DNA of 64,000 nt, taken from the NCBI GenBank assembly GCA_000004985.1, contig GG738893.1; one strand, written 5' to 3'. Within the stretch, counting starts at the first letter, position 1; every line of letters starts with the position of its first letter. This document shows positions 8,801-56,934 of the stretch, piece after piece. This DNA is from Naegleria gruberi. Taxonomy: Eukaryota. The translations under genes were made by a program, and so were the position numbers. The notes under the pieces are model-generated. The model saw only the letters and a list, made by a program, of their open reading frames with translations, was not told the origin of the DNA and ran no database searches.

Positions 8801-8993
8801 TCTCGATGTGGATCCATTCTTTGTTCCAACCACTGAAGATGAGCTTGAAGAATGGGGAGAAAAGGGTCTTATCAATATTCCAAATATTGCCAAGCAATAT
8901 ATTGATGCTGTAAGAAAGAGAAAGGGTTTGATGCTTGACAAGAAGACTGTTGAATCTGCTGAAAAGCAAAGAAACTTATCAAAGAAGAAGTAA
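5844..8993 (+). CDS. EFL1: Elongation factor-like GTPase 1 (EFL1/Ria1), an EF-2 paralog involved in 60S ribosomal subunit maturation.
   Basis: 1049-aa intronless ORF. G1 motif AHVDHGKTTLSD, LINLIDSPGHVDFSSEV and NKIDRL are present. A long acidic insertion lies between the G domain and domain II, as in EFL1 but not eEF2. The C-terminal ...AVRKRKGL....AEKQRNLSKKK matches the EFL1 C-terminus. Confidence 0.85.
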   Translation: MVNISSEKLHQTQQDTEHVRNICIIAHVDHGKTTLSDFLISSNGIISSNLAGKMRYMDSTAYEQEKRITMKSSAISLLYKDKNDENSDEYIINLIDSPGHVDFSSEVSTAARLSDGCLVLVDVVEGVCTQTKTVLEQAFRENIKPCLVLNKIDRLILEKQMTPMEAYKQMLHILQQVNVLLTTFVTVQLFKKINEQDEKKEDTKEEETKDQSKQQYDNVFDDNEVDSNDFFSPSKGNVLFASAYDGWGFRINDFSEIFSKKMGMNKNTLQQTLWGDFYLNPKKKAISKKPIKDDQPNMFVQFILQNIYSAYDCLLINRDEEKIKKMIQALDLNLSKAFLSKNDHKSQLKTLMNQWLPMSDSILSMVVSRLPNPKEAQKERVLDLIPELKTIKDKTNETKKSNQVNAEIRTQRRKLKKNLMQCDKSDNAEVLIFVSKMFEADEIPTQGGSATKIDQIQLQRERLRKLREERLKQKELGETSTTETDSAQPTEGSESTETNEENNQENDTEASKLVAFCRIFSGTIRVGQTLHILGPRYNASNPNEDRIEFKVDKLFLLMGRGLECVDSVPAGNIFGLGGVGKHILKTATISSSTHSPIFSAMYVQSIPIVRFAIEPQNLMDMPKLVKGLKLLNQADPSVEVLVQETGEHVIVTAGEVHAERCIRDLNERFAKVPITVSPPLVSFRETIIEQQKEPVIASKKTGNKRWTIKIKAIPLPENIAHYIDKHKEDFRAYFSNDSRRTSKSVFVTSEVIDGLKQQFIDAGKQWETEWDNVWCLGPRRIGPNVLLNHIPDYKTPNFEPLHKQVADMLAENEDEETTATEEPVETSERIESLKQFDHSFISGFQLATNSGPLCDEPMYGVCFCIEDVVFETEGIHDEDFGGPFTGQIMSSMKTACRKSFDNSQRRLVEAMYDCEIQATNESVGSVCDVLRRRRAKIYSDDMEEGSGLFIIKCHLPVAESFGFSEELRTRTSGAAQPQIAFSHWQILDVDPFFVPTTEDELEEWGEKGLINIPNIAKQYIDAVRKRKGLMLDKKTVESAEKQRNLSKKK

Positions 8994-18821: not shown

Positions 18822-20516
18822 ATGGAATCACCACTAAAGAAGAAGAAATTACATCATCACAATGATGAAGAAAATATTCAAATAATGAATGAACAAGATG
18901 ATGAAAATGTTAAAATAATATTATCAGATTCTTTATACGAAAGTAAACTATTCTCCAATTTACAAAATCAATTCGGAGGAAGAAAATTTAAAGAAATCCA
19001 ATCCGAACACACATATATTGATCACATTCGCTTCACACACGATGTTAAATGTATTCGAACTTGTCCAAAGAAGAAAAATTTACTCCTTCTCCACTATTCT
19101 AAAGAACTTTCCATTTATGATTTGGAAAGCAAACAAGAAATTAGAAACATTCACTTTAAAACAAGTGAAGATTTTGAAATTGATGATCAGGGAGATTTCA
19201 TCTATTACATTACTAAAGAAGATTATTTAACAAAATCTTCCTTATTAGACGAAAGAAGTAAATTAAACACAATTTGGGAAGAGAAGATTAATTATCAAAC
19301 TTTTATATTTTGTGAATCAAAGAATGAAATTTATGTAATTGATCATTTTAATACTGAATTTGTAATGATTCATGTATTGGATGTATCAAATGGGGAATTA
19401 ATTAGGGAAATTGTCTTTCCTATTATGAATTTGATTACTGAATGTGATGGTGGACATTTAACTCATGAAATTAATCAATTTTACTATGATGAAAATGGAG
19501 GAAGATTCTATCTAGCTTTTGAATCAGTTCTAGTTGATGATGAAGATTCAGACGATAAAACTATTCATTCTCTTTATGTATTTGAAGAAAAGATTGGTAA
19601 AACTAGTAAGATTCATATTAATTATTTAATTTCAATGATTGGAATTTTACAAGAGAACTATTTCTTTTGTTTAGATGAATGTAGAAATGTGCATATTTAT
19701 TCAAAGAATACAAATGAATTGAAAAATTCATTTACAATGAATAGTACTGCTCAATGTATTTATTTTGACATGTCAACCAATAGATTATTCCACAAAACAA
19801 CAAGATGTATTGAAATATTTCAATTAAATATTATAACAAAGAATGAGAGTTTTCCAATTAACAGAGAAATGTGTCAAGCTATCAAGAGATTGGGAGGCGA
19901 ATTTCCACAATATCTTTCACAACATCATCAAGTACCAAACACTGTAAATTTCTTGAGGAATATTAATTTCAGAAATACGATTTTGAAATTTGTTGACAAT
20001 GAAATTAAGGAACATTTCAGTTTAAAAGAATTACTATGTAATTCCAATATAGATAATGTGCCATGGGGATATTTAAAACAGCAAAAGTGTTGGTTATTTG
20101 TGATTTTTGAGGAGGTTTCGAATATCAATGACTTTCCAATTTACCTTTGCTCTAGTAAGGATCGACAAATACTGTCAAGAACATACACATTTTCAGAATT
20201 TCTCTCTAAATGTACACCAGTTGAACAAGTTTCAGTTTTAGAACAGGAATATCTCATTGATTTTCATAGTATCTATCAAAATTTATTACAAAAAGGTATC
20301 ATTCATCCACAAACACGTAAAATCGACCCTAACATTCTATTAGCCAAGTATAGAGAAATGGTTTGTAAAAATATTCACATAATCGAGTTGAGAAATCATT
20401 TTCAATACTCAACCATTAAATTGGAAAATACTGAATATACAAAGATGGATTTAATTGTGGCAGCTGAACGAATTTACTCTGATGCAACAATACCACAATC
20501 ATTTATTATTGAATAA
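18822..20516 (+). CDS. Hypothetical protein of 564 aa.
   Basis: Uninterrupted ORF starting in an AAAAAAATGG context. No family recognised. Confidence 0.5.
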   Translation: MESPLKKKKLHHHNDEENIQIMNEQDDENVKIILSDSLYESKLFSNLQNQFGGRKFKEIQSEHTYIDHIRFTHDVKCIRTCPKKKNLLLLHYSKELSIYDLESKQEIRNIHFKTSEDFEIDDQGDFIYYITKEDYLTKSSLLDERSKLNTIWEEKINYQTFIFCESKNEIYVIDHFNTEFVMIHVLDVSNGELIREIVFPIMNLITECDGGHLTHEINQFYYDENGGRFYLAFESVLVDDEDSDDKTIHSLYVFEEKIGKTSKIHINYLISMIGILQENYFFCLDECRNVHIYSKNTNELKNSFTMNSTAQCIYFDMSTNRLFHKTTRCIEIFQLNIITKNESFPINREMCQAIKRLGGEFPQYLSQHHQVPNTVNFLRNINFRNTILKFVDNEIKEHFSLKELLCNSNIDNVPWGYLKQQKCWLFVIFEEVSNINDFPIYLCSSKDRQILSRTYTFSEFLSKCTPVEQVSVLEQEYLIDFHSIYQNLLQKGIIHPQTRKIDPNILLAKYREMVCKNIHIIELRNHFQYSTIKLENTEYTKMDLIVAAERIYSDATIPQSFIIE

Positions 20517-29252: not shown

Positions 29253-32200
29253 ATGAGGTTCTTTAATCGTGGTGGAAAGAAGGACGATAAAAACAAGAAC
29301 AACGGTTCTACAACCACAACACCAGATAATAGCAGTGGTACCACTACTACAAATGGAGGTCGTTCTGGTTCTACCACTCAAACACCTCCAATTTCAACTG
29401 GAATACAAGATTCAACAGTGAGTGGTAGTCCTACTTCAATGACTCCAACCTCCACTGGTATGATGAATATGAATAATGGTTCTAGTTGGTTCTGGTTCTT
29501 CTTCTTCAAATGGTGGAGAAAATTCACCAGCTACAGTAGCAGTAGTAGAAGGCTCTGGTGTCAATGTAAAATCACTCATCACCAAGACCTTGACCTCTCT
29601 ACAGGAAATTTGGGATATTCACGGAGAGTTTTTGACTGTAACAGCAGATGAAGAAGATACTAAACAAAAACTTTCAAAATTGACAAAATCAGAAATTAGA
29701 AAACACATTGATTTATTAATTGGTAAGAGAGAAGAGTGGAGTTCTGAGAGTGATGAAGCTTTTGCCTATCGATACAATATTAGAAAGGCTCACGTTATGA
29801 GTGAAAACAAATCTATAGAAAGAGGTGATTTACTTCCACCTGTTTATTTAACCTCTGATACTACTTTTGATCCGAGTATTAAATTCTTTTGTAAAGTAAA
29901 TTTAGTTGGAGGTAAGTTTAGAATATTTAGATTAGTTTATATTCATGAATGATTTATATCAATACTATATATTGTATTATAATAACAATACTATTATTTG
30001 ACTACTGATGGTTGAATGAACTTGTTTGATGCTTGTCTTGTTGACATTATCTCCCATTCATTGAACATCTCGGCTCACCTCATCAAATCATTAATTGGTT
30101 TACATTCGTATATATATATTTAATTGTAACATTTTATACATTCTCTCATCGAATTTCTTATTCGACTATTCATAATAATATAATAACAATAACAACAACA
30201 ACATTAACTGTCTATATAACTTTTATGTAGACAATTTCCAAAGAATGGTTGATTGTGAACCATATTCCTCTGCTGACGATTTTGCCGAGTTGTTTATTAA
30301 CAAGATTAACAAGTCACATCTCTTGAATAGAAGAAAGGAAGACGTAAGTAAATTATAACTGCAATTCTCTCTGAACATCATCATTACTAATAACAACAAC
30401 AATATCATCAATAATATTATCATCAAATTTCATAGTGGATTTTTAAAGCTACTGGTACATCTGAATATATTTATGGTAATCAAAGAATGATTGATTTTGA
30501 AGTGATTAGAAGATGTTTGAAACGTGGTATTAATCGTGTCCAACTAAACCTCATGGACAAGGAAACTGTCTTGAAAGAATTGGATCCATATGATATGAAT
30601 TTGAGGACAACTGAATATGATTTTGATTTTAAGAGAACTCCAAGATATTCCATGGATGATCATGAAAGATTCAAAAAGATTCAAAAAGATATTAGAGGAA
30701 ACAAGAAGCACATCTTTTTGCATTACAATAGATTCAAAGGAGTGCAAACATATAGTAGTTATACAGAAGATGAATTTTCTAAAAACAGCTCTTCAACAAT
30801 TTTGGATGACGATGAATGGATTAGTAAGATTGATCAAACTGATAATAATCACAATTTGACACAAGCAAATCTCACAATGAGAGATTCTTTATTCAGGACT
30901 GAAGAATTAATTAGAGATAAGAAGGCATTCACATTGTGGGATATTCATCGTCCATTCCGTCTTAAAATTGTTGGACTTGATAATATTCCACTCTCAGAAG
31001 ATAGAGCTATTTACATTACTGCTCAAGTTTTTTTAGGTGGAATGCCGTTGACAAATTGTCGTATTACAAAGTGTGTAATCCAAAATAGAAATCCACGCTT
31101 TAATCAATATATTACCTTCCCTGAATTGTACATTTCTGAACTCCCTCGAGAAGCTAAAATTTGCATTACAGCTTTTAGCAAACCATACGTCCAAAATGAT
31201 CCACACTTAATTGTATCAAATAGATCACCAACCATTCAAGATATGACAAAACTTGCTAGTAGTACCATCAAGAAGGGTGTTATTACTGGTAATGAAACAC
31301 TCCAAATTAATACAGCAAATACTCAACTTCAACTAGGAACATCTCCATCAATGATTTCAAATCCAACTGAAATTATTGATATTGATCAATCTTCAGCTGC
31401 TTCTTCCAGTTTCTTGAACGGAGATGAAGAAGATATTCTCGAACATGAACAAGAACAAGGAGAAGGTGGTAAAAAATCCAAGAAGGATAAGACAAATGTT
31501 CCTGTAGCTGGTATGAATTTCCAATTATTCAACTTTTGTGGAACTCTCAAACAAGGTGTTTATTGTCTCAAAGTGGAACCAAATAGAGAAGCCAAACCAA
31601 TCATGACAAGTGGTGAATCTAAGGATAGCAAGATTTCAATGACTTTCAGTTTGGACGAATATCTGTTACCTATTGTTTATCCTGATGATGAAGATAGTTT
31701 CTCTTCTATAGTCACTACAGATCAAACTAATACTTCTTTCTCTGACACTCTCAACAGTCTTAAACAAACAAAGGACCAATTGACAAGATCACTTTCAACA
31801 ACTGAAGGTGGAATGTCATTCAATCCTCTTACTCAACCAAGAAAAACTCAAATTCAAAACACAGGAGAACAATCAAAACCAGTTGCTCCAAATAGATTCA
31901 AGAAGCATTTACCAGAAATATTTATCAAGAGATTTGAAGAATATGTTGCCAAGAAGAATAGTGAAAGTTTACCTCCAGGTATTGCTGAAAAGAAATTAGA
32001 AAAAGTTTTGAATTATGATCCACTCAAGACACTCAACTCTGAAGAACGTTGGTTGTGTTTCCTCAATAGAGACAAACTTATTGCCAAACCAAAGGCTCTC
32101 TCCAAGTTCTTGCTTTCTGTACCTTGGAAGTTCCCTGAAGCAAGATTGATTGCCAAGGAATATTTGGCCAAGTGGAATGCTATTGAACCAATAGATGCAT

Positions 32201-33591
32201 TGGAATTGTTGGATCACAACTTTGGAGCCAGTTTTATTAGAGAATATTCGATAGGACGACTTAACCAACTCTCAGATCAACAACTTTGTAACTATCTTCT
32301 TCAATTGGTTCAAACCTTGAAATATGAAAGTTATCATGACTCTTCACTTGCTAGATTCTTACTCCAACGTGGTTTGAGATCACCAAATATTATTGGTCAC
32401 ATTCTCTTTTGGCATTTGAAGGCAGAAATGTATGTACCATCTATTAGAGAAAGACACGGTTTGATTTTGGAAGAATATTTGAGAAATTGTGGCTCTCACC
32501 GTATCGCCCTGTTGCAACAAACAGGTGTACTTCATCAATTGAATGTAATTGCTGAGGGTGTTAAAATAATAGATAAGGAAGAATGTAAAGAATATGTTAA
32601 GACATGTTTAGCAGAACTTAAACATCCACCAAAATTCAAATTGCCACTCTCACCTCGTATGGAAGTTAAGGGAATTGAAGTTGATAGATGTCGTGTCATG
32701 AGCAGTAAGAAGAAACCTCTTTGGTTGGTATTCCAAAATGCAGATGCAACTGGTGACCCAATTCAAGTCATGTTCAAGGCAGGTGACGATCTGAGACAGG
32801 ATTTGCTGACACTTCAAATTCTTTCTATTATGGATCAATTGTGGAAGAAGAAAGGTCTGGATCTTCACATGAACCCATATGGTTGTATTTGTACAGGAGA
32901 TCAACAAGGTTTTATTGAAATTGTCGTTGACAGTGACACTGTTGCTAATATTACTGCTGGTGATACAGGAGGTATTTCAGGAGGTATTAAGGCTTTTACA
33001 AGTGCACCTCTTGAAATTTGGTTGTTAAAGAATAATGGTGGAGTTATTACTTCACCAGATTATGAGAAAGCTGTACAAAACTTTGCATTATCATGTGCTG
33101 GATACTGTGCTGCCACATATGTTTTAGGTATTGGTGATAGACACAATGATAATATTATGTTAACTAGAAAAGGTGATTTATTCCACATTGACTTTGGTCA
33201 CTTCCTTGGTAACTTTAAATCCTATAAGGGTATTTATAAGAGAGAAACTACACCATTCGTTTTTACTCCAATGTATGCCCAAGTTATGAAATCTTTTGAT
33301 TCTGAAAATAAGGGAAAATGTTATTATTCCACTTTTGAAGAGAAGGTTATAGCTGCTTATCAAATTTTGAGAGAAAATGGACATCTGATAATGAATCTTT
33401 TCCTTCTCATGTTGGCTACTGGTATTCCAGAATTAACTTCAGTTTCTGATATCAAATGGCTGCGTGATTGTTTGGTTCTTGATAAGTCACCAGAAGAGGC
33501 TGAACAACACTTTAGAGATAAGATTACAAAGGCTCTTGCAAACACAAAATCCCAATTCAACGACTTTGTCCACATTGTAAAACATAAATAA
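29253..33591 (+). CDS. Phosphatidylinositol 3-kinase, class I-like catalytic subunit, multi-exon. There is an S/T-rich N-terminal extension and an apparent frameshift near 29484. Exons end at about 29918 and 30342; the main exon is about 30434..33591.
   Basis: The catalytic domain has GDRHNDNIMLTRKGDLFHIDFGHFLGNFK (catalytic and activation loops) and GDDLRQDLLTLQ upstream. A helical PIK domain and a C2-like region lie upstream. An N-terminal Ras-binding-like region spans two upstream exons: GTAAGT at 29919 and ATGTAG at 30228, then GTAAGT at 30343 and TTCATAG at 30433. The frame switches inside a GGTTCT-repeat at about 29480. Confidence 0.85.
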
Positions 33592-33674: not shown

Positions 33675-36171
33675 ATGTCAAGATACTCAACACAACCTAC
33701 CATGCAACGTGGTGCTTCATCTAATAAGGTTGAGGATTTTGAAGATATGTTAGACATGGATCCTTATGATTTGGACGAGAATGTTAAATCACTTCTCGTT
33801 GCCGAAAAACTTGAGGAACAATATCAACGTAAGTTTTCGAAGGCTTGATAGTATTTATTTTAACTGACAATTTCTTCTTCATCAAATAGATTCATTTCAA
33901 AACATTGCTCAAATGAGACAAGCTATTGAGGAGGAGGATAGGAAACGGGAGAAAGTAGTGCAAAGGCAAAAGGAGCCAGAGCCGGAAAAGTATTATGATA
34001 GTGAGGGTGATGACGAATTAGAAATAATGGAGAGTGATGATCATGTTACAAAGTAAGTTGAATTACATTAATTATTAATTAATGTTACAAGTCAATTGGA
34101 GTTTACATTAGATGATATACCATTTCCTGCAAATCAAGATAATATTCCTATTCATGAAAGATTACTAAATTTCGGATCAAGCCTTTCATTAAAACATCAG
34201 TTGATGAAAAAAGCTAAGGATGAGAAGGAAAGTGAAACACAAACACCACACATTACTGAATTTGCAAAGCAAATGAAAAGAAAAGGAGCTATTGAGAATA
34301 GATTGCTTCAATCTAGGGATGAACTGAATGCAAGACTTGATGAATTGAGAATGGAAAAAGAGAAAAAAGAACTAGAGGAGCTACGAGGTCCAAAGATCAA
34401 TAAGAGATCTAAAGAATTGAAAAGAGATGAACCAGCATACGATAGGTTACTAGGATACAGAGAACAAACTCTTGCTAAAAGAGAAATGATAAAGAATCTA
34501 CTCGAAGAAAAGAAACAACAGGAAATAACAATGAAACCACAAATTAACAAAAAGTCTCAAAAGTTGAGAAGAGATATTGATGCTATTCAACAATGGGAAA
34601 AGGAGAAAAATCTGAAAACAGAACAATTGAGAAATGAAATCAAGAAACAAGAAATCGAGCAATTGCAACAGCCGAAAATTAATCCAATCAGTGAAAAATT
34701 AGCAGCACAAATGGACAGGGGTCAAGATGTAGGAGATTATTTGATACAAAGATATGAGAAAAAGAAAATGGAAAGAGAAATTAGGAATAAGATTGAAAAA
34801 GAAAAGGAAACAAAAGAAGCTAAACCTCATATTTCAGTCCATTCTGCAAATTTGGAAAGACAGGGGGTTGTGTTTGATAGATTATATATTGACAGTTTAG
34901 AAAAGGAAAATAAGAGAAGAGAAATGTTGGAGCAAATAGAAAACAAGATTAATAATAATATTGATCCTCAAACAGGAACACCTCTTTACAATCCTATCAT
35001 TAATGCTAGATCTGCTTTAATGGCTAGAAGAGAACCTGTAGAAGATGTGTTGTTAAAAAAACGAGAAGAAGCAGAAAGAAAGAAGATGGCTTTAGCAGAT
35101 AGGGAAAAGAAAGAATTAGAAGCTCAAGGAGGGAAAGTTGGAGCCTACAGCCGTCTTTTAGTTGAAATACTAGAAAAGAGAACCAACACAAATACTATGG
35201 ATCGTCTTACCAGAGTTCCAAAGAAGCCAGAACCTACTGTCATAACTCAAACATATTCTTTTAAACCAGCTATTAATCAAAATTCAAGAGAAATAGACAA
35301 ATATAGAAATCAAGGTACTCCTCGTCAAGAAGTGTTATTAAGGAAAGGATATGAATACGAGCAGCACAAGAAAGAAATTGAGCAAAGGATCAAGGAAGTT
35401 GAAATGTCTCATTCACCAAAAAAGAAGCCTAAAACTCCTAATGGACATTCTCTAGCAGATAGATCATTAGATTGGGCAAAAAGAAAAGATTTAAAGCTCG
35501 AATCTGAACGAAAAATGAGAGAAGCAAAAGAATCTGAAGAATGCACCTTCAAACCCAATGTAAAACGACTTGATGTCAGTAACATTGCACCTTGTGAATC
35601 TCATTTCAGGACAAAGGAGGAGGAAAATAGTTATCTCATTGCAATGAAAAAGCAGGAGAGTGTAAAGAAGCTCAATAATTCCAAGACAGAAGATATAAAA
35701 CCCAAAGGGGGTTATTCACAGAATAAGAAGGATCCAGTGCCAAAGTCAATCAGACCAAAGAGCAGAGGGTCAGTGGATTTAAGAACCTCAACCAAATCAG
35801 TCAACCCTATTTCAAATCAACACCCTATTAACACTGATATTGATCGTAGGACACAGAATACAAGATATGATGAAATGGAGGATAGTGAAATTATGGACAA
35901 TGAAAACATCTATGACGAAGAAGAAGTGGATCCTGAAATGGAATTTGAACAGTTGAGGAGACTTGTTCAACATGATAAATCCACTACTCAAGGATATTCA
36001 AATAATTTCAAAAACTCTCCACCTTTAAATATTTCAGATTTATTAGATTCTGAAAAAACCATGAATGAGCTGTATAGGTTATCAAATGAGCTTGATTATG
36101 ATGATATGAATAGGATGACCCCAGAAGCTTATGATCTTATCACGAACATGATTAGAAACTCTAGAAAATAA
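33675..36171 (+). CDS. K/E-rich coiled-coil protein with repeated F-K-P-x-I-N-x-x-S-x-x-L motifs. Three exons: about 33675..33827, 33890..34053, 34092..36171.
   Basis: Introns carry GTAAGT donors at 33828 and 34054, with acceptors AAATAG at about 33889 and TTACAAG at about 34091. Motif copies: GPKINKRSKELKRD, KPQINKKSQKLRRD, QPKINPISEKLAAQ, KPHISVHSANLERQ, SFKPAINQNSREID and TFKPNVKRLD. Confidence 0.5.
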
Positions 36172-36295
36172 AGTGTATTTTAGCTAGGAATCAATTTGCG
36201 CGCCAATTCAAATTACAAAAAAAAATAGGTATATGTCTACTGAACAAAACGGTATGTACTGGTTTTCATCATCATTCTCAATTTAATAACAAGCC

Positions 36296-36767
36296 ATGTC
36301 AAACGGAGACGATTCTAAGAGTATTTTTGTCGGAGCCAGTTTGCAAACAACAAACAATCAATTAGTAAAATGTAAGTCATCATGATAGCAAAATATTCAT
36401 CATCTCCGTCATCTGAAATAATATTTATTATCATTATTTAGGCATCGAGGAATTAAGATTGAGGAGAGATGAAGTTACCAGACAAATAATAAAGGAAGAG
36501 GAAGAGAAAAATAGGATACAAAACGAATTGAGAGTACTTTCGGAGAAGCTAAATCGCCTCAATGATGGTCTAAGTAGAAAGCTCCAAGCTAAGCAAGAAT
36601 ACGAACGAACATTACAAGAAACAGAAGCAGCATATAATAAGGTATGTTATTTTGTAAATTAATGATTTTAATTGTGATCATTAAAAAAGATTTTGGAAAG
36701 TTCTCAGACACTGCTTCATGTATTGAAAAGAGAAAGTGCAAGTCTTTCGAAGAAAGTTGGACAATAA
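36296..36767 (+). CDS. SSNA1: SSNA1/DIP13 (NA14) homolog, a 117-aa coiled-coil microtubule/basal-body protein. Three exons: 36296..36371, 36442..36641, 36690..36767.
   Basis: The spliced product is [117 protein letters not shown]. It aligns along its length with SSNA1/DIP13 ([11 protein letters not shown]...[21 protein letters not shown]). The introns are 70 nt (GTAAGT..TTTAG) and 48 nt (GTATGT..AAAAG). Confidence 0.75.
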
Positions 36768-36884: not shown

Positions 36885-39287
36885 ATGGGCTCAAGTTGTT
36901 TAGGGGAAATAAAAAAGGCGAAAAAAATGAACAAGTTTAACAAAAGGCTTGGCGGGCTCAAGAGTCTTTTGCACTTGTTGAACAACAAGAAATCTTCATC
37001 ATCATCACTTGCTCGCCTCTATAGTATTAGTTTTTCAATAGTAAAAGGATCTCCACTATCCGTATTCAATCAGGAAACTGGCTCTTACCAGGAGACCCCA
37101 ATTTTCTCTGTACAAAGAAATAATACAGCAAAGCCTACCGAAGTGGCAACTAAACAAACAATCAACTTGACAAAATATGGTTCACATCATGAACACAACA
37201 AAATTAAAGGAATTAAACCTATTCCTATACAAACAAGGAAGGAAAATATCGAGTCTTCGAATGCTTTTATTGCTTCTTCTGCAAGAATTTTGCTCAACAA
37301 TAGAAAGTTCGAGGATGTCATCAATTTAATCAAAAGTTCTTGTCCTAAAGATGAGAATGGTGATTTGGATATAAAAACAATAGCTTCACAGGAAGCTGGT
37401 ACCGAAGTATTATTAAAATTACATCAAGCGTATGCAGCAATGAAAAATTTGGAAGAAATGAAAAAAATTATACAACACATAACAAATCCTTTAATGTACA
37501 ACAAATTTCAAGGTGAAATTATCAAACATCATGCTGCAACTGATAATCATGTTGAGGCTTTAAAATTATTGGGGAATATGGCTTATATTCCTTATTGGAA
37601 TTTGATTTTCTTGGGCGTAACCAAATTGGTAGTTTACCGAATACCAGAGTCAACCCATGAAATTATTACTTTTTTAAATCAATACATCGAGAACCACAAA
37701 CATGAAATCAATAACACTATTTCAGAGCCCAGTCAACATTTAAAGGATTTACCAGCAAATTATTCTATCAAGGATGTAATTATTAGGATTAGAAAATTCT
37801 TTGACGGTACAGGTTATGAATTGGATAGAGTAAGATTTGCGCTAATGACAATAGAGGCATTGTCTTTATTGGAGGATTTTGGAACAATGGAAATTTTGTT
37901 TAATATATTAATTGATAAGAATGAAAATAATGCTGATGTGTTATCTAAACTTAAAGGAATAATGATGCACAGCCTTATTTCTCTGGGAAGATATGAGGAT
38001 GCTCTGTCTGTATTTTTTGATATCAAAACTCCTCCAAATATTAGAACCTATGAAAAGCTAATGCACGTATATATTGGCATTGGCCATTACGATTTTGCAA
38101 TCTACTTGTGTGAAACATATGTAAAAAATCCAACAACAGAAATTTATGTTTTATTGATCAAAGCTCATATTTTGAAAGGAAATATTGAAAAAGCAGAGTA
38201 TATTTTAAGAGATGTTATTGAAAATTCAAAACTTACTGATGATTCTCAGATAGTAATGAAAACTTTGCTCATGAGTGCCTATGCTGAGGCTGGTATGATT
38301 CAGCAAGTTCAAAAATTATTTGATTCAATTGAAAAACCGGATGCAAGATGTTATAACGAGTTGATGAAAGCTTATTGTCATATTGGTGACACTAAGAGAG
38401 TTAAAGAGATTTTCCAATCAGTTCCATCTAAAGATGCTGTCAGTTTCTTGTATTTATTAGATGGTTTAGCTATTGATGGAGATTCATCTACCGCTTTGAA
38501 ATTCTATAATTTAATACCAAATCCCAACCATATCCATGCAGATGCAGTGGTGAGAGCTTTACTGGCAGATACAAAGAGTGGATTAGATGGAGCTCTAAAT
38601 TTCTTTAACAAACTAAGAAATCCTTCAATATTGACTAGAAAGAGAATATTAGGAGCCATTTCTAAAGCAGGTGATTTGGAAAACGCTTTGAGTTTTTTCA
38701 AAACTATACCAAATCCTGATACAGAATGCTTTGGTCTATTGTTGAGAACATTTTTCTATACCCAAGAGCGTTATTTAAGCCGTGCTGAGGAATTTTTCAG
38801 TAGAATACCAAATCCAGATGCACAATGTTATGCCAGTATGATTAGTATTTATGGAAGATCTGGAAGATTAGATTTGGCTGAAAAAATGTTACATCAATAT
38901 CCATCTCCTTCAACACTTATTGCATTCTTTTATGCCTATTTTTCAAATAATCCAAAAGAGTCTTTCTGGGAAAAGTATGAAACACTTGAAAAACTTTATC
39001 CACGTTGTTTTGATAAGCCAGTTTATTTAGCATCTATTAAGGAAGCTGTTAAATATAAGAAAAAAAAACAAAGTATAGCTTTATTCAGAATTTATTTACA
39101 AAAAGTTCAAAACAAACAAACTAGGGATCTTTTAGGTTTGCTTTTGTTTATTGCAAAAGAAAGTTCATATCGGGAAAATGAGACTTTAACTAAAGAGATT
39201 ATTGATGCTGTTCCAAATTGCATTGCAACACCAAATACTTTGGGACAAATCAAGGAAATTGCTTTTGAAATTGAACAATTAATATAA
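36885..39287 (+). CDS. PPR-like (pentatricopeptide-type) helical repeat protein, 800 aa, probably organellar.
   Basis: Repeated units of about 35 aa with PPR-like signatures (ARCYNELMKAYCHIGD, IRTYEKLMHVYIGIGHYD, AQCYASMISIYGRSGRLD). The N-terminus is basic and hydroxylated. Confidence 0.55.
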   Translation: MGSSCLGEIKKAKKMNKFNKRLGGLKSLLHLLNNKKSSSSSLARLYSISFSIVKGSPLSVFNQETGSYQETPIFSVQRNNTAKPTEVATKQTINLTKYGSHHEHNKIKGIKPIPIQTRKENIESSNAFIASSARILLNNRKFEDVINLIKSSCPKDENGDLDIKTIASQEAGTEVLLKLHQAYAAMKNLEEMKKIIQHITNPLMYNKFQGEIIKHHAATDNHVEALKLLGNMAYIPYWNLIFLGVTKLVVYRIPESTHEIITFLNQYIENHKHEINNTISEPSQHLKDLPANYSIKDVIIRIRKFFDGTGYELDRVRFALMTIEALSLLEDFGTMEILFNILIDKNENNADVLSKLKGIMMHSLISLGRYEDALSVFFDIKTPPNIRTYEKLMHVYIGIGHYDFAIYLCETYVKNPTTEIYVLLIKAHILKGNIEKAEYILRDVIENSKLTDDSQIVMKTLLMSAYAEAGMIQQVQKLFDSIEKPDARCYNELMKAYCHIGDTKRVKEIFQSVPSKDAVSFLYLLDGLAIDGDSSTALKFYNLIPNPNHIHADAVVRALLADTKSGLDGALNFFNKLRNPSILTRKRILGAISKAGDLENALSFFKTIPNPDTECFGLLLRTFFYTQERYLSRAEEFFSRIPNPDAQCYASMISIYGRSGRLDLAEKMLHQYPSPSTLIAFFYAYFSNNPKESFWEKYETLEKLYPRCFDKPVYLASIKEAVKYKKKKQSIALFRIYLQKVQNKQTRDLLGLLLFIAKESSYRENETLTKEIIDAVPNCIATPNTLGQIKEIAFEIEQLI

Positions 39288-39974: not shown

Positions 39975-40327
39975 TTATTCCTCAAATGGATCTGACTTGT
40001 TTGCAGTCTTTGCTTGGACAGCCATTTGTGCAGCTTCCTTTTCCATTTCTTCAATCTTTTGCAATGTTATCGATTTGAGTGGCATGATTTTAGGTTTACT
40101 CAATATCTCACTCAATGTACTCTTTTCCGAATAAACAAGACCAGCCTTTGCAATGACTTCCGTTATTCCGACAGTTTCTTGTTCCTATTTTATCAATCCA
40201 AACAATAATACATTGAAATCATCAATTATAATACAATCACAATGAATCCCGATGAATCATCACACAACAATAATAGTTCATACAACAACACTCAACCATC
40301 CAAATCACCTACCTTATTGTTCACCAT
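39975..40327 (-). CDS. Small hypothetical protein of 73 aa. Two exons, ATGGTGAACAATAAG|GTAGGT ... ATAG|GAACAAGAA....
   Basis: AAAAAAATGG start context. A 15-nt first exon is followed by an intron of about 120 nt. The second exon encodes EQETVGITEVIAKAGLVYSEKSTLSEILSKPKIMPLKSITLQKIEEMEKEAAQMAVQAKTANKSDPFEE and ends in TAA. Confidence 0.3.
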
Positions 40328-43987: not shown

Positions 43988-44860
43988 TTATTCTGCAATA
44001 TTCTTTTTCAACCAAGTAATAATATTTGTCAAGCAAGTATCCAAATTCATGGCAGAACTATCGTGTTCATCTTTGATAGTTTCGAACATTGTCTTTTCTT
44101 CAAGAGTTAAAGACATTTCTTCGAAACTCTTGTAAGAAAACTTTTGGATGTGTTTCTTATCTACTTTTGCTTCGAACAAATTTTGAATTGTATAGACCTT
44201 TGGAAGTGGGTCTAATTTTTCTTCATTTTCAATAATTACATTACAATCATAAAAGTGTCTGATATATCTGTCTAGAGGAATATCAGTAACTTTTCTTCGT
44301 TTGACAATTGCATCCATTTTCTCTAATAATGTTTCCAATGGATGAACACAATCAATTTCAATCTTTGGACACTTATTTAATTGGTGGATTACTGATCTGA
44401 CATCTCGTGTAACTACACAATTATGTTCATCTAAACCAATGTCAATATAAATCTCACCACCTTCCAAATTTCTAACTTGGGATTCAAATTTTACCAGAAA
44501 TACACAAGTTTCACATTCAGTGTCTAATTCGTTTTTAATTTTCTCAACGACAACAAAAGGAATTAGTCTCTTTGTGTGTTCAAACACGGCGGCAAAGTAC
44601 TTTTCTCTTTCTTTCTTGTTTTGTGGCATGTGATACTTTAACTCTAAATCCATGAAATTGTTCTTTTTTGGAATTAGTTTTAGATCCATATCCTTGGATT
44701 GTCTGTTGGATATGTGAAATACCTTAGAGAGAGTAGAGCCACCTTTGTAGATTACATCAAACTTTCGAGATAGCCAGTAGAGAATGTGGCTTCTCCAGTA
44801 ATCAAGTTCTAAATCATACAATTGTTTTGACATATCAACAAAATCACTACTTGCTGACAT
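43988..44860 (-). CDS. Nucleotidyltransferase of the AbiEii/AbiGii (DUF1814) toxin family, 290 aa, intronless.
   Basis: Pol-beta-type NTase signature VIYKGGSTLSKVFHISNRQSKDMDL, compared with the family consensus KGGTAL...R.SEDID. The size is typical of AbiEii. Codon usage and GC match the surrounding host genes. No cognate antitoxin-like ORF is adjacent. Confidence 0.5.
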   Translation of the reverse strand: MSASSDFVDMSKQLYDLELDYWRSHILYWLSRKFDVIYKGGSTLSKVFHISNRQSKDMDLKLIPKKNNFMDLELKYHMPQNKKEREKYFAAVFEHTKRLIPFVVVEKIKNELDTECETCVFLVKFESQVRNLEGGEIYIDIGLDEHNCVVTRDVRSVIHQLNKCPKIEIDCVHPLETLLEKMDAIVKRRKVTDIPLDRYIRHFYDCNVIIENEEKLDPLPKVYTIQNLFEAKVDKKHIQKFSYKSFEEMSLTLEEKTMFETIKDEHDSSAMNLDTCLTNIITWLKKNIAE

Positions 44861-50822: not shown

Positions 50823-53131
50823 GTGATTCTACTTGAAAAAAAAATGTCATTTCATCACAACAATGATGGGAGAGATCCGACCAATCATCACCATCCAGAA
50901 AAACAAGAGCAACCAACATCAACATCATCATCATCTCGACTACGCCAAGAAATTCCATCACTAAACTTAACTGAAATTAATAATATTTTTCCAACAACAT
51001 TAACAACAATAACGGAAAACAGTACAATTCATCAATTATCAATAACAAGTTCTGACAATAACAGTTTTGAAGAACCATCAACATCAACTACAACATTAAA
51101 TAGTTGTTCTAATAATAATAATAATATTTCTAATAATAGTAATTCTGATAATAATAATGAAAATATAAATTATAAAGAATTATATGAAAAGGAAGTTGAA
51201 AAGAATAAATTATTAACAACTCAACTTGCTATAATAAATTTACAAAAACAAGATGAATTTGAAATTATTAAAATTATTGAAAATGAATTAAATGATAAAA
51301 TTAATTTAAATTTTATTAAATTTAAATTAAATCAATTAAAAAATTTAAATCAAGAACAAGTATTTACAAATGATTCAATTTTAAACGATTATTCTAAACA
51401 TGAATTAACTAAATTTGAAAATGAAATTTATAAATCTATTGATAAACATCCAATTATAGAAAAAATGACAAAATTAGAAAGTGAAATTAATTTTTTAAAA
51501 TATTCATTAAAATATTCAAATAATTGTTCATCATGTACTGAAAAACAAGAATATTCAGCTAAAATAATACAAAAAGCATTTCGTTCATTTCGTATAAGAA
51601 ATCGAATGAAAATAATTTTTCCCAAATATGACATTATTTCACAACGTAATTCACTAATTAGTGAAATAGTTCAAACAGAACAAACCTATGTTAAATCTTT
51701 AACACTAGTTCAAAGACTATATATAGATCCATTAAAAAATTCAGATTTAACAGATACAATGAGATTTAATTTAACAATTTCACAAATTCAAAAAATATTT
51801 AATAATTTATCAACAATTTTATCAATGCATCGAATTTTCTTGATAAATTTAGAACAAAAATTGAAAGAATGGCCAAATGTTTTTATTGGTGAAAGTTTTA
51901 TGAATCAATCTTTCTTTTTCCTTTTTTATGTTGAATATATAAATGGTTATAATGAATCTTCAAATACTTTGAGAGAATTGAGATTGAAAAATAGGGAATT
52001 TTTAACATTTTTAAATGAAACTAAAAAACATAAGGAATGTAAAGGTTTATCACTTGAATCTTTTTTAATTTTACCAATTCAAAGGTTTGTTTTTTTTTAA
52101 ATACTTTCATTACAATAATATTTAAATACTAACATTACAATAATATTACAATAATATTTAAATACTTTTATTACAATAATATTAAAATAGATTACCAAGA
52201 TATAAATTACTATTAAAAGGAGTATTGAAACATACATTACCTGATCATACAGATTATCAAAATTTAAAATCTGCCTATAATAGAATAAGTGCCATCAATA
52301 ATGCAATTAATTCTAAAAAGAAGGAACATGAAACTTATTTAATTATCAACAAAATGTTCAATGAAATGAAAATATTTTCAGTTCAACAAGATTATCATTT
52401 GTAAAGTATANNNNNNNNNNNNNNNNNNNNNNNNNNNNNNNNNNNNNNNNNNNNNNNNNNNNNNNNNNNNNNNNNNNNNNNNNNNNNNNNNNNNNNNNNN
52501 NNNNNNNNNNNNNNNNNNNNNNNNNNNNNNNNNNNNNNNNNNNNNNNNNNNNNNNNNNNNNNNNNNNNNNNNNNNNNNNNNNNNNNNNNNNNNNNNNNNN
52601 NNNNNNNNNNNNNNNNNNNNNNNNNNNNNNNNNNNNNNNNNNNNNNNNNNNNNNNNNNNNNNNNNNNNNNNNNNNNNNNNNNNNNNNNNNNNNNNNNNNN
52701 NNNNNNNNNNNNNNNNNNNNNNNNNNNNNNNNNNNNNNNNNNNTTATATTGAACAGGAGGGTGTTATTCATGCTTTATCATTTGAGAGAGAATCACCAAT
52801 TGCCAATACTCACATTGATTGGTCAAAGAAACTCTACAAACAACTTCATTTAACTAAGGAAGATGAACAAATTAATAATGTTAAACAATTTGAAATGAGA
52901 GAAATTTTGAGAATTTGTGATCAGGTATTTCACAAATTTAGTACAACCTCCTCATTGAACAAATTGGAATCAACAGTTTTTGAAGAACCTTCACCTAGAA
53001 ATTCAATGATGAAAACTCTTTCATTCCTCAAGAAATCACCTTCACTCACTGCTGTTAAACATACAGAAGATGAAGAACATGAAGTTAAGAAATTAATTGA
53101 TACCATACAAGTTAATACTGAACATTTTTAA
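50823..53131 (+). CDS. Rho guanine-nucleotide exchange factor (IQ motif + DH domain + probable PH domain). The gene spans the assembly gap and has at least one intron (about 52087..52198).
   Basis: The N-terminus is N/S-rich. The IQ-like motif is AKIIQKAFRSFRIRNRMK. The DH domain starts LISEIVQTEQTYVKSLTLVQRLYIDPL. The end of the DH domain continues after the intron as LPIQR|ITKIKLLLKGVLKHTLPDHTDYQNLKSAYNRI, the classic PRYxLLLKELLKHT. The downstream ORF after the gap (52744..53131) is in the same orientation. Confidence 0.6.
52391..52743. other. Assembly gap (353 N).
   Basis: Run of n characters. It interrupts the RhoGEF gene. Confidence 0.99.
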
Positions 53132-53231
53132 CTAATTCAATTGAATTAAAAGATTATTTAATAAAATAATTTTAAATTTATTTATTTCAAAAAAACATAA
53201 AATATTCTCAATATTCTCAATATTATTATTA

Positions 53232-55870
53232 TTAAATAGTCAATTTCATTTCATTAATTTCTTGTTCACGTTGTTCCTTCAAACCATGAATTGATTCCAA
53301 AGCAAAAGGTGGGAAATAAGCATAACTAAATTTATCTTGTAATTGATTATTAAAAATTGATAATTCCTCATCTTGACTATAAAAAGTGGAATGAATTAAT
53401 TGATTATTATTTGAATCTAATGGATTAAATTTAGTCTTGTAATGAATATTCCAATATAAAGCATAAACAATTGATAAAATTAATAATAAACACATTAAAA
53501 ATAAATGAATAAAAGTAACATCTCCTGATTTGGCAAAGAATAACATGACATAAAATTGAGCAAATATTATACAAAAGAATGTCATTTGTACAATTAATTT
53601 GTTACGTTCTCTATAGGAAGTAATATCAGGTGATAATTTGTAACGTGCTTTATCATTTTTAGAACATAATCTTGAAATATTATATCTATCAATTAAATGT
53701 TTTACAATAAAATAGAAAAATCCAATTGGTAAAATTAATGGAACAAAAACTGAAAATGTTAAAATAATTCCAAAGAATGCAATCATATAACCATATTCTA
53801 ATGGTAAATCAAATTCACTAATTTTAGTTGCATTTTCCTTTTCCTCTTCAGTTACACTTTTAAATCTCAAATAAAAATAAATAATTAAATCTTTTAATCT
53901 AATCATATCAACAAAACATCCTAATAAAGAATATTGAATTGTATAATTAATAAAGAATGCACCTGATTGTGGTAAAAATAAATAATCAAATAAAGCTTGC
54001 CAATTTGAATCACCTGATCCACTAACTGAATGACTAAATTGTTCAAAATATCTAATAACACCATCTAATGAAGTTAATAATAAAACTGGAAGTATTAATG
54101 TTGATAAAACAACATAAATAAATAATCTTAATAAATAAACACTTGATTCTTCTGAATAGGATTTATATTTTTCAAATCTAGTTAATAGTGGTATAATCAT
54201 TGGTAATAATTGTGCAATAATAAATAATAATAATGTTGGTAAATAGTGAAATAAAATATCACCTGTATATCCACTTGCTTCTTTAATTTGATTAAATGCT
54301 TTAGCTGCTTGTGGAATACGATTAGCAATTGATTGAATAGATGAAACAATTGCCAATGGACTTGTAAAAAATAATAAGAAAAATACTAATAGTAAATTTA
54401 CAATTGCAACTCTAAATGTTCTTTGATTTTTAGATAATGAAAAATTTGACCAATTTAAATCTTGTGGTTCAAATGTTTTCTTTTCAATACGAAATTCAAT
54501 TAAATCATTTGAATCATTTGAATCATTGATACAAGTAGTAGTAGTATATTAGTAGTAGGAGTAGTATTATCATTCATCATATTATTATTCAATTTAAATA
54601 ATTTTAAACCAGTTTCATCCATTGCTTTACATTTAGATGCATCTTGAATTGATTTAAAAATAACATGTCCATATCCAGTTGATTTTGGTTGATTTTTAAA
54701 AGTTTCTTCCCATTCCATAATTAAATGTTCTAATTTTACTTTCTTTTCATTCCAATAATTTAAAGCATCAACTCTTTCAATAATTTTAGAACAACATTTA
54801 CCTTTTTTGGATGATTCGAATAATTTAATTAATTTAACATGTTTGTTTGTTTGATTTTGAACATATTCATAATGTTTAATTTGTTCAATTGAATTTTCAA
54901 AAGATTCTTGTAATTCAATTCTTTCACTTGTATCATGAATTAAACGACATGAATAAATGTTTAAATTTGGAAATATAGATTCAACTGATTTTCTAAATTT
55001 AGTATTATCAGTAATTTGAATTGGAATATCTTTTAATAAAACACTATAATTACTAATCATATTTAAAGTACTATTTGAATCATTTTCAAATCCATCCATA
55101 TTTATATATTGATTAACAAATTTAGAATTAACAAATCTATACATTAAATAAAATATTAAAATTGAAAATAAATAAAATAAAATAACATGTGCATATAATC
55201 TATCTGTTAATGATAATACCATATTAACACTTGTCTTGTATAAAAATGAATCAGTTTCAATATTTGTACTATTTTGATTCTTTGAAATTACATTTAAATT
55301 ATTCATTGTATTAGAATTACTAATTTGTCCTGTTAAATGTAATGGTAATAATACTGATAATCCAATTAATGTAAATAATCCTGTAAATAATATCATTTGA
55401 TGTGAATACCATAAATAAACACTAACTTCATGTCCATACAATTTACCAATTCTTTCATATTCACTTTCAAATATTAAAAATTGATAAATTCTTTTAAAGA
55501 ATCTTTTAAATACATTTCTTTCATTCTTATCATCATTTATATTAGTATTACCACTTCCAATATTATTATTAGTATTATTAATATTAAAATTATTATTGGA
55601 TGATGATGATTTTTTACGTTTCCATAAACGTAAATTTCTCAAACAACAAAATAAAATCAACAAGCCTAAAACAAAAACACAACCATCAAGAATTAAAATA
55701 AAACTAACACCGGAATGATTAGTTTGTAATTGTAAAGCATAATTAGTTTCATTGATACTTGATGATGATGCTGATGCACCACCACCATCGGCACCAATGG
55801 CCAATAATGATGATGATAAAATACCACCGCCACCAACAGCTATTGGTGATGACGTCATTTTAATGATCAA
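53232..55870 (-). CDS. OSCA/TMEM63/CSC1-family mechanosensitive (calcium-permeable) channel. An apparent frameshift or short intron lies at about 54360-54560 inside an ACT/AAT repeat.
   Basis: 54500..55870 encodes N-terminal TM helices plus a cytosolic domain (YLWYSHQMILFTGLFTLIGLSVLLPL, RLYAHVILFYLF). 53232..54356 encodes the 7TM C-terminal block (RSN1_7TM-like: LLPMIIPLLTRFE, YLLRLFIYVVL, FFINYTIQYSLLGC). The two ORFs are collinear. Confidence 0.65.
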
Positions 55871-56934
55871 ATTTGTTGTGTCTAGTCTTCAAGTAATTAT
55901 ATTAGTGCAAACTTTAATGATGATCAAAAAAGCAGGCAGTGGAGAAGGAGGATCAGTTATATTACTACTGCTTCTTTGATTATTTTTTTGTTAATGATAT
56001 TGATGATTGTGGATGAATATGATAATTGCGTTTGTAATTTTTGAAATTAGTTTTTGAGAACTACAGTTTAGTTTCGAACTGTAGATGAAATTTTCGAATA
56101 ACTGTAGTTCAAATGTATAAAATTTCAAGTTACTACATGTTTTGTAAGAATGTAATGGACTCCATTCACTCAACCTGCAAAATCATAACCATTCTATAAA
56201 AGTACAAATTTAAGATTGTAGGCTCTCTATTGCAATGTTCTGCATTTCTACATTTTCATCCAATTAAATATCAAAAGACTCTAACGCATTCCATTGTCCG
56301 CTCAATTACTCCAACACTAACTATTGAGGACACCCCAAATATTCCCAATTTAGTAGAACTCTTTCTCCAGTAACAATGCAACATGATGAACTCAATTATT
56401 GTGCGTGATGATGTATTTTAAACATGTACTGTTTGTAGCATCAAGAGAGGAACATTGTTTCATATGAATGGACAACGGAATTGCATCATTATGAACCATC
56501 ATTATAAAATCTTTCCATCTTGCTGATTCGCAAAATATCTTAGTTATATCTTCTCAGTCACTATATTGATTACCAACATTAAAATTTTCCTTAAATATTT
56601 TCCATCTTGTTGTGGAGAGAAAGAGCGATGGGTGGTAGCTAGGCTTGGGTTGGTTGCATTGTTTTTTTGGCTATGTGTTGAGGATGGTTGAAAACGTAAC
56701 AAGCCTTGTTGAAAATCTTCAAAAAAAAAGAAACAACAACTACCCACTCACAACAATAGAGTTACTGCTATTGAACATAACCAGTTGCACTTTTGGTAAT
56801 TTTTTAAATCCTCATTTGTACATATTTACGAATAGACATATTGGGGAAGGACCATTTTGCATTTCACTTAGTAAATACAACAACACTGCAACACTAATTA
56901 TAATACATCTATATATTGAATATTTTGAATAAGA

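Follow-up and report, generated by a model that had tools for sequence, protein, structure and literature searches.

The stretch of DNA considered here comprises 64,000 nucleotides (nt) of contig GG738893.1 from the Naegleria gruberi assembly GCA_000004985.1 and is called the window in the following. Its positions 36296-36767 (plus strand) contain the single-copy SSNA1 (DIP13/NA14) gene of this amoeboflagellate, locus NAEGRDRAFT_71898. After splicing of three exons the product of 117 amino acids (aa) is 100% identical over its full length with EFC40325.1 / XP_002673069.1 / UniProt D2VSD1. In GenBank, RefSeq and UniProt this entry is labelled "hypothetical protein", and the orthologue of Naegleria lovaniensis bears the UniRef name "Sjoegren syndrome nuclear autoantigen 1". 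Kennard et al. 2024 list the N. gruberi protein in their Data S1 as "SSNA1 Naegr jgi_71898", an assignment for which human and Chlamydomonas baits were used in reciprocal BLASTP (bioRxiv 10.1101/2024.01.08.573270). Gene model, protein and family assignment are thus all public already and the identification contains nothing new. A preliminary description made from the letters of the window had proposed an unannotated three-exon SSNA1/DIP13 gene with a colinear product of 117 aa. Its coordinates, exon count and length turned out to be exact; the word "unannotated" is right for the prokaryote-style track of open reading frames (ORFs) but wrong for the three databases and for Kennard et al. 2024.

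Joined together, the three exons (Table 1) form a coding sequence of 354 nt that extends from start codon to stop codon. Exhaustive threading yielded a single GT-AG model at this locus that reproduces the deposited protein. The mechanical ORF list shows no more than three fragments for these exons, 29, 67 and 24 aa long, all of them terminated by an in-frame stop within the adjoining intron. If intron 1 were retained the frame would end at 36383-36385, and intron 2 has its in-frame stop at 36660-36662. The ORF track shows no gene at this place because the frames of the exons run into these stops, and for the same reason all unspliced readings are truncated and non-functional. The gene is compact: it begins 124 nt past the upstream gene and ends 117 nt before the downstream one.

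When platypus SSNA1, Ectocarpus DIP13 and Vitrella DIP13 were used as tblastn queries against the whole window, the sole matching locus was 36296-36767. E-values ranged from 1e-30 to 4e-32 for exons 2-3 and from 0.008 to 0.02 for a 14-aa part of exon 1. No second SSNA1-like locus was detected within the 64 kilobases (kb), the next tblastn match having E > 0.5. This match to SSNA1/DIP13 is far above chance.

Support for the splice junctions is comparative and comes from the deposited proteins of Willaertia magna and Acrasis kona, which were threaded through their own loci. Exactly one GT-AG solution exists in each of the three genomes. In all of them intron 1 lies in phase 1 within the invariant cysteine codon of the motif LV(K/Q)C|IEEL, intron 2 lies in phase 0 between AAY(N/S)K and ILESSQ, and the middle exon is exactly 200 nt long (3/3). 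The lengths of introns 1 and 2 are 70 and 48 nt in N. gruberi, 39 and 43 nt in W. magna, and 37 and 41 nt in A. kona. Introns that vary between the genera in sequence and length in this way are what is expected of genuine introns.

The ATG at 36296 is favoured as start codon because the N. lovaniensis orthologue also begins with MSNG. A possible mini-exon of 19 nt further upstream, with an ATG at 36233 followed by a 42-nt intron (36252-36293, GTATGT...AAG), would add MSTEQNA in frame. It was rejected as probably a fortuitous GT-AG pair: the protein collection does not contain the resulting product of 124 aa, and the start of the N. lovaniensis orthologue resembles that of the deposited model.

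A database search with the spliced product gave 760 homologues (E <= 1e-3), and in the precomputed annotation the family PF27720 (SSNA1) is found on all matches listed, including the identical N. gruberi entry. Hundreds of these homologues are about 111 aa long and are 60-83% identical over 85-100% of their length, with long invariant motifs outside the heptads. An alignment (A1) was assembled from sequences of Naegleria, Willaertia, Acrasis, platypus, sturgeon, Ectocarpus, Vitrella, Diacronema, Durusdinium and Palpitomonas. Identity to Naegleria SSNA1 amounts to 60-79% in this set and 44 columns are invariant. They are concentrated in an N-terminal block (G13, A14, L16, Q17, N20, N21, L23, V24, C26, I27, E28, L30) and a C-terminal block (T82, E85-L101, V103, L104, K105, E107). 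A failure to align with SSNA1 over its length had been named in advance as the result that would speak against the gene. What was found is a full-length colinear alignment with 60-63% identity to platypus and sturgeon SSNA1 and to the DIP13 proteins of Ectocarpus, Vitrella, Durusdinium and Palpitomonas. A member of the family is expected to be a small protein of about 105-125 aa that lacks a second domain; the N. gruberi product falls into this range, and hmmscan reported no other Pfam family above its threshold in the 117 aa. All sequence-level features that define the family are present, and the product is a full-length colinear SSNA1/DIP13 orthologue.

Heptads rich in lysine, glutamate, leucine and glutamine might draw spurious matches, and the three fragments could then be no gene at all but a chance resemblance to coiled-coil proteins. 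Some weak generic matches are indeed present, since hmmscan against a local Pfam version lacking PF27720 delivered only sub-threshold coiled-coil families (such as Golgin_A5 and Spc7; E 0.009-1), and the coiled-coils of vimentin and NKP1 appear in the PDB search at E ~0.06-0.3. Such an explanation is, however, refuted by the identities to the homologues, by the invariant non-heptad motifs of A1 and by the exon structure kept in two further genera (Willaertia, Acrasis). The lack of a second match in the window better than E = 0.5 and the deposition of an identical gene model also contradict it, and we attach practically no probability to it.

AlphaFold2 predicts one unbroken helix for residues 4-116 with a mean predicted local distance difference test score (pLDDT) of 93.5. 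A single heptad register spans residues 13-112; its a and d positions are occupied to 66% by L, I, V, M, F, Y or W versus 27% overall, and not one of 5000 shuffled sequences attains this occupancy. The predicted product is essentially a single long alpha-helix whose heptad repeat is uninterrupted. In a search of the PDB with the family profile the sole match at E <= 0.01 was 9dsm, the SSNA-1 protein of Caenorhabditis elegans (E = 1e-6). This is the sole solved structure of the family (PMC12350680) and 88 of its residues align with the Naegleria protein without gaps. The nematode protein is very divergent (E = 0.004 against Naegleria with the single sequence), and it is only about 24-26% identical to the mouse and Chlamydomonas proteins (PMC12350680). 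Its junction-core leucines L19 and L89 correspond to Naegleria L30 and L100, both of which are invariant in A1.

Among the better conserved relatives, the vertebrate proteins (represented by platypus and sturgeon) are 61% identical, colinear over the whole helical part and carry the same invariant motifs. Human SSNA1/NA14 and the Naegleria protein are alike in size and in the single predicted helix, and in the shared register the human oligomerisation residue S89 is kept as Naegleria S97, which is invariant in A1. Compared with the human protein, Naegleria has 8 additional N-terminal residues (MSNGDDSK), and past human position 104 it has 5 residues (KKVGQ) and almost no disordered tail, whereas the human chain (1-119) continues for about 15 residues with an intrinsically disordered region after 104. 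Chlamydomonas DIP13 (deflagellation-inducible protein, 13 kDa) and its algal and protist relatives (Ectocarpus, Vitrella, Diacronema) are single coiled-coils of about 111 aa from flagellated hosts with an identity of about 60-63%, and DIP13 serves as basal-body marker in Chlamydomonas and Phytophthora. Unlike in algal DIP13, the acidic pair of the CIE-D-L motif is E-E in the three heterolobosean sequences and in the two vertebrate ones, and the C-terminal KKK of algal DIP13 is changed to KKV in Naegleria. These lysines and the acidic pair are reportedly the residues that Basnet et al. 2018 mutated in CrSSNA1 in order to block branching and fibril formation. Closest are the heterolobosean orthologues from Willaertia magna (ABK040_010779), Acrasis kona ("Ssna1") and N. 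lovaniensis (C9374_004414), with 72-83% identity to Naegleria SSNA1 and with differing N-terminal lengths. In N. lovaniensis the SSNA1 sequence is present on two contigs, under the locus tags C9374_004414 and C9374_011216, which points to a duplication either of the gene or of an assembly region.

Cells lacking SSNA-1 in C. elegans display multipolar spindles and fragmented centrioles, in line with a role in centriole stability, and embryonic viability falls in the absence of the protein or of its self-assembly (PMC12350680, PMC12704290). The nematode protein forms an antiparallel coiled-coil in which a C-terminal overhang of 16 residues enters the next dimer, giving a triple-stranded junction and head-to-tail fibrils (PMC12350680). 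Human SSNA1, visualised with a knockout-validated antibody, forms a nine-fold ring inside the distal part of the centriole lumen and is also present at basal bodies; C2CD3 recruits it, and SSNA1 in turn is required for recruitment of LRRCC1, for timely removal of CP110 and for ciliogenesis (bioRxiv 10.1101/2025.04.28.648957). Truncation of the human protein to residues 1-90 or the exchange S89D leaves a dimer that has lost oligomerisation (bioRxiv 10.1101/2025.04.28.648957). Exon 3 of the N. gruberi gene corresponds to the C-terminal segment on which oligomerisation of the human and C. elegans proteins depends. SSNA1 occurs in lineages that have centrioles or cilia and is missing from species without cilia (PMC4914967), which agrees with the earlier statement that the protein is generally retained in ciliated lineages.

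That Naegleria gruberi has a flagellate stage was recognised over a century ago. Its amoebae possess neither centrioles nor cytoplasmic microtubules, mitosis proceeds with an acentriolar spindle, and basal bodies arise de novo at differentiation. The overall best explanation, in which we place high confidence, is that N. gruberi SSNA1 is a self-assembling coiled-coil component of basal bodies formed de novo. Direct results are the structure of the gene, its orthology and the predicted single-helix coiled-coil; beyond them this explanation draws on studies of SSNA1 from human, C. elegans, Chlamydomonas, Trypanosoma and Toxoplasma. By analogy with them, two SSNA1 helices would pair to an antiparallel coiled-coil dimer, whose conserved C-terminal segment would overhang and form a triple-helix junction by packing on the N-terminal end of the dimer that follows. 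Dimers could in this way self-assemble head-to-tail into fibrils. The protein would be a structural part of centrioles and basal bodies (in human cells of the distal lumen), made and incorporated at the conversion of amoebae to flagellates, in which two basal bodies are built de novo. Its synthesis is expected at this transition since the amoebae are devoid of centrioles. In the basal bodies it would help to stabilise the distal centriole or to organise it, and would favour assembly of the flagellum.

Several points weigh against this explanation. A literature search found no published account of the localisation of Naegleria SSNA1. The Pfam assignment of the N. gruberi protein relies on precomputed annotation, the local hmmscan having returned nothing but the sub-threshold matches mentioned above; this outcome, due to the lack of PF27720 in that version, was not counted against membership. 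Arginine R18 of C. elegans SSNA-1, involved in microtubule binding, corresponds to glutamate E29 in Naegleria, and the tyrosines Y15, Y97 and Y105 correspond to C26, S108 and G116. Because such key residues differ and the nematode orthologue is divergent, the details of junction and microtubule contact are not transferable from C. elegans. Moreover, microtubule binding by SSNA1 is contested in general, being reported in PMC12350680 and disputed in bioRxiv 10.1101/2025.04.28.648957. The groups disagree on microtubule binding by untagged SSNA1 and the C. elegans residues are not conserved, so that the Naegleria protein may or may not bind microtubules directly. The preliminary description had spoken of a basal-body/centriole microtubule protein, of which the first part holds and the second is disputed (bioRxiv 10.1101/2025.04.28.648957); "centriole/basal-body protein" is the safer label.

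A genuine SSNA1 could also act mainly off the basal body, be it at the acentriolar spindle, in cytokinesis or as a stabiliser or brancher of microtubules, and would then be expressed in amoebae. C. elegans, human cells and Chlamydomonas show multipolar spindles or multinucleate cells when SSNA1 is depleted (PMC12350680), Toxoplasma tachyzoites have SSNA1 at the apical and basal complexes and not at centrosomes, and in Naegleria some genes of centriole or axoneme proteins (epsilon- and eta-tubulin, CPC1, PF16) are up-regulated in mitosis as well. Nevertheless, most genes of the Naegleria microtubule networks are process-specific, the phyletic spread of SSNA1 follows centrioles and cilia (PMC4914967), and human SSNA1 resides at centrioles and basal bodies only and is dispensable for division (bioRxiv 10.1101/2025.04.28.648957). 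We thus consider a function mainly outside the basal body to be very unlikely. A somewhat less remote but still improbable proposition is that amoebae devoid of centrioles, or mitotic cells, express and use Naegleria SSNA1, which would mean a centriole-independent role on microtubules. If it were true, Naegleria would offer a clean test for the dispute on microtubule binding. Since its two microtubule systems are separated genetically and in time, Naegleria SSNA1 could settle whether the protein acts as a microtubule-lattice binder or a brancher, or else belongs to the centriole lumen as a non-microtubule component.

Coming back to SSNA1 as a component of de novo basal bodies, the gene had been taken as a hint at a flagellate or centriole-bearing stage of the source organism. 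This conjecture proved to be right, as PMC4819266 describes Naegleria gruberi as an amoeboflagellate that assembles its basal bodies de novo. Reading of the sequence alone has here recovered a small multi-exon eukaryotic gene that was missed by the ORF track and has led to a correct view of the biology of the organism. Beyond quality control the significance of this is limited, the flagellate stage being textbook knowledge on Naegleria. Tiny ciliary genes split by introns are nonetheless easily lost, SSNA1 having been captured as "hypothetical" and the neighbouring BBIP1 gene (Table 1) seemingly not at all.

Table 1. Position of SSNA1 and of further features within the window
Feature	Position	Strand	Remarks
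SSNA1 exon 1	36296-36371	+	76 nt: ATG, N-terminal 25 codons, first base of Cys26; own tblastn high-scoring segment pair to SSNA1/DIP13
SSNA1 intron 1	36372-36441	+	70 nt, GTAAGT...TTTAG, phase 1, splits invariant Cys codon in LVKC|IEEL
SSNA1 exon 2	36442-36641	+	200 nt, central coiled-coil, ends with ETEAAYNK
SSNA1 intron 2	36642-36689	+	48 nt, GTATGT...AAAAG, phase 0, between AAYNK and ILESSQ
SSNA1 exon 3	36690-36767	+	75 nt + TAA (78 nt); best-conserved block
BBIP1/BBS18/BBIP10 gene	39975-40327	-	BBSome subunit, two exons, ~74 aa; 3.2 kb downstream of SSNA1
BBIP1 exon 1 (proposed)	40327-40313	-	MVNNK; inferred by similarity only
BBIP1 exon 2 (main)	40184-39975	-	PF14777
NudC orthologue	39869-39693 + 39612-39289	-	two exons, 166 aa, CS domain + conserved C-terminal tail
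K/E-rich "predicted protein"	33675-36171	+	798 aa, annotated N. gruberi gene
Pentatricopeptide-repeat (PPR) protein	36885-39287	+	800 aa, single exon; PF01535 E = 1.6e-20; 117 nt past SSNA1 stop
PI3K gene	30487-33591		within ~9.4-kb N. gruberi extra segment
ORF identical to deposited EFC40317.1 (N. gruberi)	5844-8990		
ORF identical to deposited EFC40319.1 (N. gruberi)	18822-20513		
AbiEii nucleotidyltransferase toxin-domain ORF	43988-44860	-	290 aa, single exon; PF08843 E = 8e-19; annotated as predicted protein NAEGRDRAFT_51880; EFC40402.1 (43991-44860)
RSN1/PHM7-type (OSCA/TMEM63-like) channel gene	within 52001-56000	-	multi-exon

A survey for other ciliary genes had been recommended, and the neighbourhood of SSNA1 gives a partial answer to it with a gene for the BBSome subunit BBIP1. 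Its product matches Pfam family PF14777 with E = 3.1e-12 (46.3 bits at a gathering cut-off of 26) and chain 0 of PDB entry 6vbu, "Bardet-Biedl syndrome 18 protein", with E = 4.3e-8. All of the homologues (63/63), among them those of N. fowleri, N. lovaniensis, Willaertia and Acrasis, carry PF14777, and the sequences were aligned across Naegleria, Willaertia, Acrasis and Diplonema. No N. gruberi entry is found among these 63 proteins, and the candidate full-length products do not occur in the protein collection searched. BBIP1/BBS18 may hence be missing from the public protein set of N. gruberi. In the preferred model the first exon (MVNNK|EQ...) has the donor GTAGGT and ends with N-K as in Willaertia. 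Alternative first exons (MNYYCC..., MVECCCMNYYCC...) were discarded; they have the weaker donor GTGATG, are unlike the orthologues and are also not in the collection. The apparent lack of a model for these 74 aa bears on tables that list presence and absence of BBSome subunits across eukaryotes.

The preliminary description also mentioned NudC in the window, and this gene is located on the minus strand next to BBIP1. It matches the Pfam CS family with E = 5.5e-9, and in the PDB it finds mouse NudC (1wfi, E = 7e-30) and human NudC (3qor, E = 9e-25), with NUDCD2 reaching E = 1e-9 only. By these similarities the gene is assigned to NudC proper and not to another CS protein. Its intron position is common to N. 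gruberi and Willaertia. The protein collection searched does not contain the 166-aa model; therefore any deposited N. gruberi model differs from it. A K/E-rich coiled-coil repeat protein had been put forward together with NudC as microtubule-associated candidate. Here the gene is real, but its candidacy is unsupported: no Pfam domain was recognised and the 9 homologues are unnamed, five of them heterolobosean including N. gruberi itself (Naegleria, Willaertia, Percolomonas). The protein has five repeats of the type K/Q/N-P-x-I-N/S-x-x-S, spaced by 45-91 residues.

The gene order CDC48, UDP-glucose pyrophosphorylase (UDPGP), SSNA1, large ORF, NudC and BBIP10 is common to N. gruberi (14438-40327) and Willaertia magna (JBEGDK010000059.1). 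The large ORF between SSNA1 and NudC is PPR-like in N. gruberi, and its Willaertia counterpart has 880 aa and is weakly similar. UDPGP and SSNA1 are adjacent in Willaertia, whereas N. gruberi has about 9.4 kb extra between them (~26.9-36.3 kb), with the PI3K gene and the gene of the K/E-rich protein included. In N. lovaniensis the locus tags 004411 (BBIP10), 004414 (SSNA1) and 004415 (K/E-rich homologue) follow each other in a sequence that indicates the same gene order. SSNA1, NudC and BBIP1, all of them small genes related to microtubules or cilia, are found within 4 kb in Naegleria and Willaertia, which may reflect general synteny.

Further features of the window lie apart from this cluster. 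Two ORFs are identical to N. gruberi proteins deposited for the same contig of 337,165 bp (Table 1), which places the window in the genome assembly of N. gruberi NEG-M. The ORF with a bacterial-type AbiEii toxin domain (NAEGRDRAFT_51880) is a candidate for horizontal transfer from bacteria to a eukaryote. Finally, the segment 52001-56000, in which the channel gene is located, has a G+C content of 21% versus 31% in the whole window.

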